The notes beneath the pieces are model-generated. The model was not told the DNA's origin. It made no database searches and saw nothing but the letters and a program-made list of their open reading frames with translations. Both the position numbers and the translations under genes were made by a program. A stretch of 64,000 nucleotides of DNA from Malacoraja senta (Eukaryota): positions 27,220,001 through 27,284,000 of the forward strand of contig CM075987.1 in NCBI GenBank assembly GCA_038087875.1, in the 5' to 3' direction. Shown one piece after another: positions 3,791-63,243 of the stretch (its first letter is position 1; the number at the start of each line of letters is the position of its first letter).

Positions 3791-4530
3791 TCTAATCTAA
3801 ACTAAACTAAAATGAAATGGGGAAATTTGCACAAAATTCATCAAACCACAGTTTATAATTGCAAATTAATTGACATTAACTAACAGTTATGGTCTCTCGT
3901 GGTTGCTGTAAATTCTGAGTTACTGCATCTTACTGCAAGCTCACGACACATCCAATCAGCCTGGCTCCAGCACTGTTATTTTGGGATAATTGACACTTCC
4001 CGCACACTGCATTTTTTAATTCTATAAATATAGAAGGTAATTAAGATTTCCTCTCCATATTGTGACAACAGAGCTGTCTTTGCAAATGGCAAATGACTAT
4101 TAAAAGATGACATTTATCGCAATGCAAAACTCAAGATATGTTTCATGGTAAGAGGTTGATTTTATCAATAACATTTCAGTGATATTATCAATAGCTGGCC
4201 AAAGACCTCATCATCAAAAGTTACAATGAGAACAGGTAACATTAAGATGGAAAAAGGCACAGAGTGCTGGAGTAACTCAGCGGGTCAGGCAGCATCTGTG
4301 GAGAACATGGATAGGTGACGTTTCACAGAGTGCTGGAGTAACTCAGCGGGTCAGGCAGCATCCGTGGAGCGAAGGAAATGGGCAACCTTTCGGGCCGAAA
4401 CCCTGAAGGAAATAGGCAAAGTTTTGGGCCGAAACCCGGAAGGGTTTCGGGCCGAAAAGTTGCCTATTTCCTTCGCTCCATAGATGCTGCCGGAACATGG
4501 ATAGGTGACGTTTCACAGAGTGCTGGAGTA

Positions 4531-4730
4531 NNNNNNNNNNNNNNNNNNNNNNNNNNNNNNNNNNNNNNNNNNNNNNNNNNNNNNNNNNNNNNNNNNNNNN
4601 NNNNNNNNNNNNNNNNNNNNNNNNNNNNNNNNNNNNNNNNNNNNNNNNNNNNNNNNNNNNNNNNNNNNNNNNNNNNNNNNNNNNNNNNNNNNNNNNNNNN
4701 NNNNNNNNNNNNNNNNNNNNNNNNNNNNNN
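4531..4730. other. Assembly gap (200 N)
   Basis: Run of N; the left flank is a tandem-repeat array. Confidence 1.
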
Positions 4731-28283: not shown

Positions 28284-28472
<189 letters not shown>

Positions 28473-28489
28473 TCATCAGCATCACTAGT

Positions 28490-28708
28490 GTTAAAAAAGG
28501 AACTGCAGATGCTGGAAAATCAAAGGTACACAAAAAATGCTGGAGAAACTCAGCAGGTGCAGCAGCATCTATAGAGCGAAGGGAATAGGCAACGTTTCGG
28601 GCCGAAACCTGAAGGAAATAGGCAACGTTTCGGCCCGAAACGTTGCCTATTTCCTTCGCTCCATAGATGCTGCTGCACCCGCTGAGTTTCTCCAGCATTT
28701 TTGTGTAC
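28490..28708. mobile_element. Palindromic Penelope-derived element with a 16-bp target-site duplication
   Basis: catcagcatcactagt at 28474-28489 and 28709-28724; internal inverted arms. Confidence 0.8.
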
Positions 28709-46173: not shown

Positions 46174-46330
46174 CTTGGCCCATTCTATAGCTCTGTTCCT
46201 CATGCGGTTGGCGTTCCTCTCCTCAGCGTACAGCGCTCCCATGAAGGAGCCGATGGATGTCCCACCCACCATGTCGATGGGGATGCCTGCCTCGTGCATG
46301 GCACGGATAATGCCCACTTGGGAACACCCC
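46174..46330 (-). CDS. PNPLA7: PNPLA7 exon [52 protein letters not shown] (catalytic GxSxG)
   Basis: tctgcag|G acceptor, AAG|gtagg donor; 157 nt, phase 2 to 0; Ser codon at 46255-46257. Confidence 0.95.
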
Positions 46331-61283: not shown

Positions 61284-61660
61284 AGTTTGCACATTCTCCA
61301 TGTGCCCGCGTTGTTTCCTCCGGATGCTCCGGTTTCCTGCCACATTCCAAAGACGTGCAGGTTTTGAGATTAATTGGCCTCTGTAAAAATGTCCCTCATG
61401 CGTAGGATAGAGCTAGTGCATGAAGACTCGCTAGGCCGAAGGACATGTTTCACACTTAAATTTCTCTCATGGACAGGTACATGGGCAGGATAGGGTTAAA
61501 GGTATATGGGCCAAACTCTGGCAGGTGGGACTAACCTAGATGGGGAAACTTGGTGGGCATGGGCAAGTTGGGCCGAAGGACCTGTTTCCGTTCTGTATGA
61601 CTGTATTGTTTCCATGGGTTTCCTGAAGGATTAACTTGAGTGCTGAAGTGTAACGGTAGC

Positions 61661-62029
61661 TCCCCGTCACTGCTGGGACTCACCTTGCCCCTCCACCGCC
61701 CAGCACCAGCGCAATGGAGTTCCCCGTCACTGCTGGGACTCACCTTGCCCCTCCACCGCCCAGCACCAGCGCAATGGAGTTCCCCGTCACTGCTGGGACT
61801 CACCTTGCCCCTCCACCGCCCAGCACCAGCACAATGGAGTTCCCCGTCACTGCTGGGACTCACCTTGCCCCTCCACCGCCCAGCACCAGCACAATGGAGT
61901 TCCCCGTCACTGCTGGGACTCACCTTGCCCCTCCACCGCCCAGCACCAGCCCAATGGAGTTCCCCGTCACTGCTGGGACTCACCTTGCCCCTCCACCGCC
62001 CAGCACCAGCGCAATGGAGTTCCCCGTCA
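61661..62029. repeat. Tandem array of six 60-bp units overlapping the PNPLA7 exon end and splice donor
   Basis: Six consecutive units, identical except one base (g,g,a,a,c,g at 61711, 61771, 61831, 61891, 61951, 62011). Confidence 0.98.
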
Positions 62030-62102
62030 AAATCCTGGCCAAACGAGAGAAATCAGAGTGACAGTCAGGTGTCTTCTGGCAGATCCTTTCGTACATCTCC
62101 AG
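61984..62102 (-). CDS. PNPLA7: PNPLA7 exon [39 protein letters not shown](R), start of patatin domain / oxyanion motif
   Basis: Acceptor tcttccag|CTG, donor GCAAG|gtgagt; 119 nt, phase 0 to 2; conserved [18 protein letters not shown]. Not present in the ORF track. Confidence 0.93.
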
Positions 62103-63243
62103 CTGGAAGACACAAGATCAAAACACACAGATGAATTCAGGTCAACAAATATGACACACCATGCAAAGGTATAATCATGCAGGTGAAGGAATTAGTGAGA
62201 ATGAGAATTAATAATTTACCTTGTATGGGTGGTGAATCTGTGGAATTCATTGCCATAGACGGCTGTGGAGGCCAAATCAATGGATATTTTTAAGACAGAG
62301 ATGGATAGATTTTTGATTAGTATGAGTGTCGGGGGTTATGGGGAGAAGGCAGGAGAATGGGGTTAGGAGGGAGAGATAGATCAGCCATGATTCAATGGCG
62401 GAGTAGACTTGATGGGCCGAATGGCCTAATTCTGCTCCGAGAACTTATTAAAGCAAAGGTCAGACGAAATAACAACACGGCCAGTGTTCACTATATGTGA
62501 ATATATTCAAAATCACAAAAAAGTGTATGACTCAATATCAGTAATTTACTTGCCGAGTTTTGTAAATGTCTTACTATTTGCTTTGAGACCCTACTTCATA
62601 AGTTCACGTTACTAATCAAGAATCTGTCAATCACCGCCTTAAAAATATCCATGAACCTGGCCTCCACAGCCGTCTATGGCAATGAGTTCCAGATTCACCA
62701 CCCATACAAGGTCAATTATTAATTCTCATTCTCACTAATTCCTTCACCTGCATGATCTGCCCTTGATGATCAATTATACATTAATTGTTCAGCACTAACC
62801 ACTGCTCCGAGGATTCGTAATGCTTAATTCAATCTTTTTCATCTTGCCACAGCTGATGCTTTTTCAACGTAGGAGCCTAAAGTAACCCGACACTGATTTT
62901 AATTTGAAACCGCTGGAATATTTACTCGGTACAGCCTAATTGCTGTCCGCAAACAGTTTTCAAGGTTATGGGACGAGATTCACTTGTTCATTCATTGCCC
63001 TGTGTGGTCAGTTCACTGGCATCTGTGATTGACATTAACTCCAATACAGTAGAGTCATGGAGTGATACAGTGTGGAAACAGGCCCTTCAACCCAACTTGC
63101 CCACACCGGCCAACAATGTCCCAGCTACACTAGTCCCACCTGCCTGCGTTTGGTCCATATCCCTCCAAACCTGTCCTATCCATGTACCTGTCTAACTGTT
63201 TCTTAATCAGTGACTCTGAGAATCTGAGGATTTCTTAATCAGA

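Follow-up and report, generated by a model that had tools for sequence, protein, structure and literature searches.

Minisatellites whose first monomer lies across an exon-intron boundary have been described in the human genes F7, CBS, IFI6, LMNB2 and PDGFA, according to the available portion of the report by Borensztajn et al. 2006 (PMC1557585). In F7, where a 37-bp unit is present in 5-9 copies, splicing is confined to the most upstream donor, and the same portion of the report (PMC1557585) lists LMNB2 (100 bp, 10-15 copies) and PDGFA (81 bp, 16-18 copies) as using the authentic donor only, and IFI6 and CBS as using the authentic donor together with the next two. In minigene assays of F7, whichever functional site lay furthest upstream was chosen every time, in three cell types. 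The F7 pseudo-sites are nevertheless functional, each becoming active only if all sites upstream of it have been destroyed, and pseudo-sites raised to CAG/gtgagt reached about 70-90% use against the weak authentic site, with the first site still used (available text of PMC1557585). As far as that text goes, strong donors of equal quality in series were not among its direct tests. The CBS repeat is a 31-bp VNTR at the border of exon 13 and intron 13, written c.1444_1467+7(16_21), such that each unit holds 24 nt of exon and 7 nt of intron, and its units differ by single-base substitutions, as given in the accessible part of PMC2630376.

Published results conflict for strong donors in series, with natural minisatellites using the first site and pairs in vitro using the last. 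When two identical strong donors were placed 174-176 nt apart in vitro, the intron-proximal site won (Hodson 2012, PMC3413131). Sequence between competing sites can also matter, as is evident from PLP/DM20, where a G-rich stretch between competing donors favours the upstream one (PMC1919487, from the portion available). Here we describe an array of this architecture in the skate Malacoraja senta. It is not a new kind of element, given the human examples, and its value is that of an example: it is non-mammalian, its reiterated donor is strong and matches the full consensus, and its repeat unit is mostly conserved coding sequence.

A 60-bp array across an exon-intron junction

The array was found in a 64-kb stretch of DNA, referred to below as the window, and its features lie on the minus strand, which is the coding strand. 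Tandem Repeats Finder reports a single tandem array at 61661-62029 with a period of 60, 6.2 copies, 99% matches and no indels, and its score of 717 is the highest of the 25 rows returned for the whole window. Six full units, starting on the coding strand at 62029, 61969, 61909, 61849, 61789 and 61729, are followed by a 9-nt partial seventh. Chance is excluded as an explanation for six 60-nt units at 99% identity. Each unit consists of the final 46 nt of a PNPLA7 exon and the first 14 nt of the intron that follows, and the exon-intron junction itself is contained in the first monomer, unit 1.

The donor at this junction is reiterated unchanged in successive monomers. Within the window the 9-mer AAGGTGAGT is confined to the array, with one copy in each unit (6/6), and it starts at 61986, 61926, 61866, 61806, 61746 and 61686. 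Donor 1, AAG/GTGAGT, occupies 61978-61986 and ends the exon at 61984. The identical 9-mers that follow are donor 2 at 61918-61926 (exon end 61924), donor 3 at 61858-61866 (61864), donor 4 at 61798-61806 (61804), donor 5 at 61738-61746 (61744) and donor 6 at 61678-61686 (61684), the last being closest to the 3′ splice site. The motif fits MAG/GTRAGT at 9/9 positions and ranks first for consensus match among the 10 PNPLA7 donors that the window contains. A sequence-only reading of this stretch had given the unit 46 exonic and 14 intronic nt and had placed six identical AAG/GTGAGT donors at these exon ends, and the unit map of 61661-62029 agrees with it throughout.

Only one position in the unit varies. 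Position 19 (62011, 61951, 61891, 61831, 61771 and 61711) reads c, g, t, t, c, c in units 1-6 on the coding strand, which is the series g, g, a, a, c, g that had been read from low to high on the plus strand. The remaining 59 unit positions are invariant, leaving 357/360 unit bases unchanged. The variable base, which is the C of a CpG, stands second in the Ala codon GCG, and unit 1 retains this codon. Every unit also carries three runs of at least 3 G.

Four other reading frames are open across the array (61531-62174), one of 173 aa on the coding strand and three of 164, 175 and 133 aa on the plus strand. Because the unit is stop-free in these frames, their length is a trivial effect of repetition and a trap for ORF callers.

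In layout the skate array resembles F7, with an authentic donor followed by identical pseudo-donors that share one acceptor, and its six copies fall within the 5-9 of F7. In contrast, the F7 unit, as given in the available text (PMC1557585), includes only 4 nt of exon and a weak donor, TGG/gtgggt, with a consensus value of 74, whereas 46/60 nt of the skate unit are coding and its donor has the full consensus. The same source establishes polymorphism and exclusive use of the first donor for F7, features that are putative in the skate array. The closest structural match, judged from the accessible part of PMC2630376, is the CBS repeat, in which a mostly exonic unit reiterates the end of a coding exon together with its donor and units differ by single bases, although CBS carries 16-21 copies of a shorter unit and uses two of its pseudo-sites, compared with six copies of 60 bp in the skate. 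In the portion of PMC1557585 available, an exon-intron junction is reiterated, as in the skate, in IFI6 (6-16) intron 2, in LMNB2 and in PDGFA intron 4. These repeats have more copies (10-25) and lie in different genes; LMNB2 and PDGFA, whose unit size is similar to the 60 bp of the skate, use the authentic donor only.

The constructs C174C, G176G and Ad1CC of Hodson (PMC3413131) also present identical strong donors in series, and the G176G donor, AGG/GUGAGU, is close to the skate AAG/GUGAGU, but they contain two sites 174-176 nt apart in vitro rather than six sites 60 nt apart. A tandem duplication in dog HCRTR2 was rejected as an analogue, since whole exons are duplicated there (PMC11912018, in the part available).

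The PNPLA7 gene and the consequence of each donor

Exons were located by tblastn with the Leucoraja erinacea protein, and their borders were refined to GT/AG by script before joining. The exon that enters the array is an authentic 119-nt PNPLA7 exon at 61984-62102. It codes for 39 residues and contributes the first two bases to an Arg codon, and its terminal 46 nt supply the exonic portion of unit 1. Its acceptor is tgtgtcttccag, with the AG of the 3′ splice site at 62103-62104, and a small correction to the earlier description places the exon start at 62102. The next exon, 157 nt at 46174-46330, encodes (R)GCSQVG...GTSIG... and matches Pfam Patatin (E=4e-09). The intron between the two is 15,653 nt long and ends in cag/GGGGTG; the acceptor at 46330, with the joined reading R-GCSQVG...GTSIG, had been assigned correctly. 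Ten downstream PNPLA7 exons at 9190-46330, extending to the stop codon, are in frame from donor 1.

The 11 exons in the window, joined from donor 1, encode 416 aa in an open frame that closes with TGA, and the product is identical to Leucoraja erinacea PNPLA7 residues 928-1343 at 409/416 positions (98.3%), without gaps. The nine best named matches in a large protein collection are all elasmobranch or chimaera PNPLA7, at up to 98% identity, and the window PNPLA7 differs by a few residues from its counterparts in Leucoraja erinacea, Amblyraja radiata and Rhinoraja longicauda, which marks the animal as a skate of another species. On these protein comparisons the gene is PNPLA7, as had been named from the letters, and the orthologue rather than the paralogue PNPLA6. 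The protein encoded by the 119-nt exon is identical to that of Leucoraja erinacea; Amblyraja and Rhinoraja differ from it at one residue, upstream of the repeated part. Of the 6 members of the Leucoraja protein cluster, five are annotated skate proteins of full length, and 5/5 of these read GGGGAR-GCSQVG across the junction. The sixth member is a Logan fragment, which covers C-terminal exons only and does not come from this species.

Upstream of the window there are another twelve exons in order, covering aa 407-928, and their exonic parts are free of stops, while residues 1-406 were not found in the 100 kb of flank examined. The 1.94-Gb assembly holds one PNPLA7 locus. A paralogous NTE-family locus, with 59-88% identity to the PNPLA7 query, appears to be split between two contigs, with the C-terminal exons on the unplaced contig C4020 (C4020:1335-34374) and the N-terminal exons on contig C16 (C16:7424173-7441460); it is probably PNPLA6. 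With the 51 aa of the next exon as the query, no transcript fragment of this species appeared among the best 120 of 1167 longer proteins or among 40 proteins of near length, of which the best match was 82% identical, and these searches gave no skate transcript fragment that spans the junction. A search for the single-copy state in relatives, with an alternative-frame ORF running from unit 6 into the intron as the query, returned 0 candidates.

The domains of the orthologue are NTE_Ploop (759-954), three cNMP_binding stretches and Patatin (959-1124). The 15 repeated codons span the NTE P-loop-like end, the first nine Patatin residues and a glycine-rich loop, which we take to be the oxyanion hole. 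GTSIG, in the exon at 46330, is the GXSXG motif with the patatin nucleophile serine, and the DGG aspartate is encoded in the exon at 28444.

Reading past donor 1 gives GCA AGG TGA, with the in-frame stop at 61980-61982, exactly where the sequence-only reading had put it. With a unit length of 20 codons, the frame is regained in each unit, and the same TGA is met again in all of them. Joining in silico from donors 2-6 lengthens the exon to 179-419 nt and in each case yields TGA after 40 codons. It had been claimed that only the most upstream donor preserves the frame, and this holds: the products of donors 2-6 stop before GTSIG and would lose both its serine and the DGG aspartate. Donor 1 is thus, by its predicted reading frame, the only one that gives enzyme. 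As with 'poison' sites, the stop reached from donors 2-6 lies well upstream of the final exon junction, by 1125-1365 nt, with 10 junctions downstream of it. A stop more than 50-55 nt upstream of the last junction makes an mRNA a substrate of nonsense-mediated decay, and by this usual rule the mRNAs spliced from donors 2-6 are predicted substrates.

Origin, surroundings and assembly of the array

If five units are taken away, 69 nt remain in which the 9-nt sequence TGACGGGGA has two copies spaced 60 nt apart, one exonic and one intronic. The exonic copy (62021-62029) forms the start of unit 1, and the intronic copy (61661-61669) is the partial seventh unit; the 9-bp repeat had been noted before in both exon and intron, and its copies are read on the coding strand at 62029-62021 and 61669-61661. 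Its presence at both ends does not depend on the phase in which units are drawn, and it thus follows from the sequence itself. Direct repeats that flank a duplicated segment are a classic footprint of slippage or unequal exchange. The two copies suggest that the array was seeded by such an event between them and may then have expanded to six units. The strong AAG/GTGAGT and its 15 preceding codons would have been reiterated within the intron as a by-product. The neighbouring t, t and c, c at the variable position suggest that mutated units were themselves duplicated, and the near-identity of the units points to an array that is young rather than to a conserved element.

The surroundings are rich in similar repeats. 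In a neighbourhood of 264 kb, made up of the window and 200 kb of flanks (G000:C11:27120001-27384000), there are 11 minisatellite arrays with a period of at least 20, at least 2.8 copies and at least 90% match, the longest being 1,089 bp with a 95/47-nt unit (L032:915-2003). The window lies on a 28.5-Mb contig, 1.2 Mb short of its end, and several human genes with boundary-spanning minisatellites are also situated near chromosome ends.

Other repeats in the window were noted in passing. A second young minisatellite at 1072-1270 has a 66-nt unit in 3.0 copies with 98% matches, and a G-rich minisatellite at 2436-2805 is built of GTGTACGGG-type units with periods of 9/37/73, about 37 short copies and 84-85% matches. 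At 4371-4443 and 28578-28641 there are roughly two tandem copies each of a similar 33-34-nt unit with the palindrome TTTCGG..CCGAAA, and the two sites resemble fragments of a single dispersed element. The intron also holds, immediately past the array and separate from it, a dispersed repeat on the minus strand at 61500-61616. It was recognized by a search of the skate's own genome, in which no part of the query except its final ~100 nt matched elsewhere, with 2005 first-look candidates; among the 41 matches listed, 39 are at 83-87%, one is at 78% and one is the sequence itself. It is probably a SINE-like element.

It is unlikely that there is no real array at this site, or one of quite different copy number, with the variable base produced by assembly or polishing of noisy reads. 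The assembly is indeed fairly fragmented here, with three runs of 200 N in the 264 kb (window 4531-4730, L016:5783-5982 and L027:8427-8626), a spacing that leaves contigs of only about 70-110 kb. A search of the own genome with the exon and array returned no second copy or haplotig, and the locus is thus present once in the assembly, without an alternative haplotype contig for comparison. The variable base bears on both sides of this question. Its change in blocks had been offered as an argument against a simple assembly stutter, and against that it does speak; however, three states at the C of a single CpG, with the other 59 positions constant, could reflect trouble in polishing or base calling.

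Nevertheless, the nearest gap is 57 kb from the array, and another ten arrays in the same 264 kb, reaching 1,089 bp, indicate that repeats of such size are routinely resolved. Moreover, the 9-nt direct repeat that closes the array is what genuine slippage commonly leaves behind, and assemblers usually collapse repeats and seldom invent them.

Donor choice

We favor, with a probability of roughly 0.6, the reading that the minisatellite across this boundary is real and largely harmless, and that donor 1 is used. By analogy with the human genes, productive splicing to 46330 would start mostly or entirely from donor 1 (61984), with units 2-6 treated as intron. Splicing that escapes to donors 2-6, most plausibly to donors 2 and 3, would lead to the stop after GGGGAR and to removal of the mRNA by nonsense-mediated decay. 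That donor 1 probably does most of the splicing, and that the array may be nearly neutral, would be consistent with the intact gene, the minisatellite-rich region, the precedent of F7, LMNB2, PDGFA, IFI6 and CBS, and the G runs. The three G runs in each unit may favor the upstream donor, as in PLP/DM20, a parallel that is suggestive only. On the other side, the proximity rule seen in vitro would point to donor 6, and the leak to the second and third donors in IFI6 and CBS would argue against exclusive use of donor 1. The precedents behind the analogy are all mammalian, and the host here is an elasmobranch. The intact downstream exons make a weak argument, because the array is probably too young for decay to show.

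Alternatively, the array may be real and the downstream strong donors may take a large share of splicing, such that most transcripts stop after GGGGAR and are degraded. Variants of this idea are an allele that is private to the sequenced animal or heterozygous in it, or a copy number that scales PNPLA7 output. We consider a hypomorphic, null or dosage allele of this sort improbable. It could follow from the intron-proximal rule (PMC3413131) or from plain competition among six equal sites. The skate AAG/gtgagt differs from the F7 mutant donor CAG/gtgagt only at position -3, and pseudo-sites of that sequence accounted for about 70-90% of use in F7 minigenes, as reported in the available text of PMC1557585; the skate donors should therefore be able to compete.

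The full consensus of the skate donor, the best in the gene within the window, and the position of the stop far upstream of the last junction also fit an allele of reduced output. Going by the titles of earlier work, the 31-bp VNTR in CBS has reportedly been linked to multiple alternate splicing and to reduced enzyme activity. Set against these points, unit 1 and all other exons examined are intact, and in the five natural boundary minisatellites the most upstream donor is used, either alone or with its two neighbors (available portion of PMC1557585). The sequence-only reading had invoked the tendency of the intron-proximal donor to be favored. This is borne out by pairs in vitro (PMC3413131), but natural boundary minisatellites reverse it, as far as the available part of PMC1557585 describes them.

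A narrower version, in which the array is polymorphic and its equally strong donors cause a measurable, copy-number-dependent share of transcripts to be spliced from donors 2-6 and decayed, appears to us quite doubtful, and a copy-number 'dosage dial' for PNPLA7 is speculation. The notion that copy number sets dosage is also not a new idea, since the 31-bp VNTR in CBS provides a precedent: its copy number was reportedly linked to enzyme activity by Lievers in 2001. An RNA structure that hides the donors was rejected, because the 463-nt RNA of exon and array folds no better than shuffled sequences (z = +0.27, with 60/100 shuffles folding at least as well).

The harmless minisatellite with donor 1 in use thus remains our preferred reading, and under any reading the locus holds a warning for annotation, in that a gene model with any donor except the first truncates PNPLA7. 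If the copy-number version were true, a minisatellite would act as a dosage dial for a lysophospholipase, and the locus would offer a natural test, with six sites and outside mammals, of 'upstream scanning' versus 'intron-proximal' donor choice. Given the conflict in published results for strong serial donors, donor use in this skate would be one useful observation on 5′ splice-site selection.
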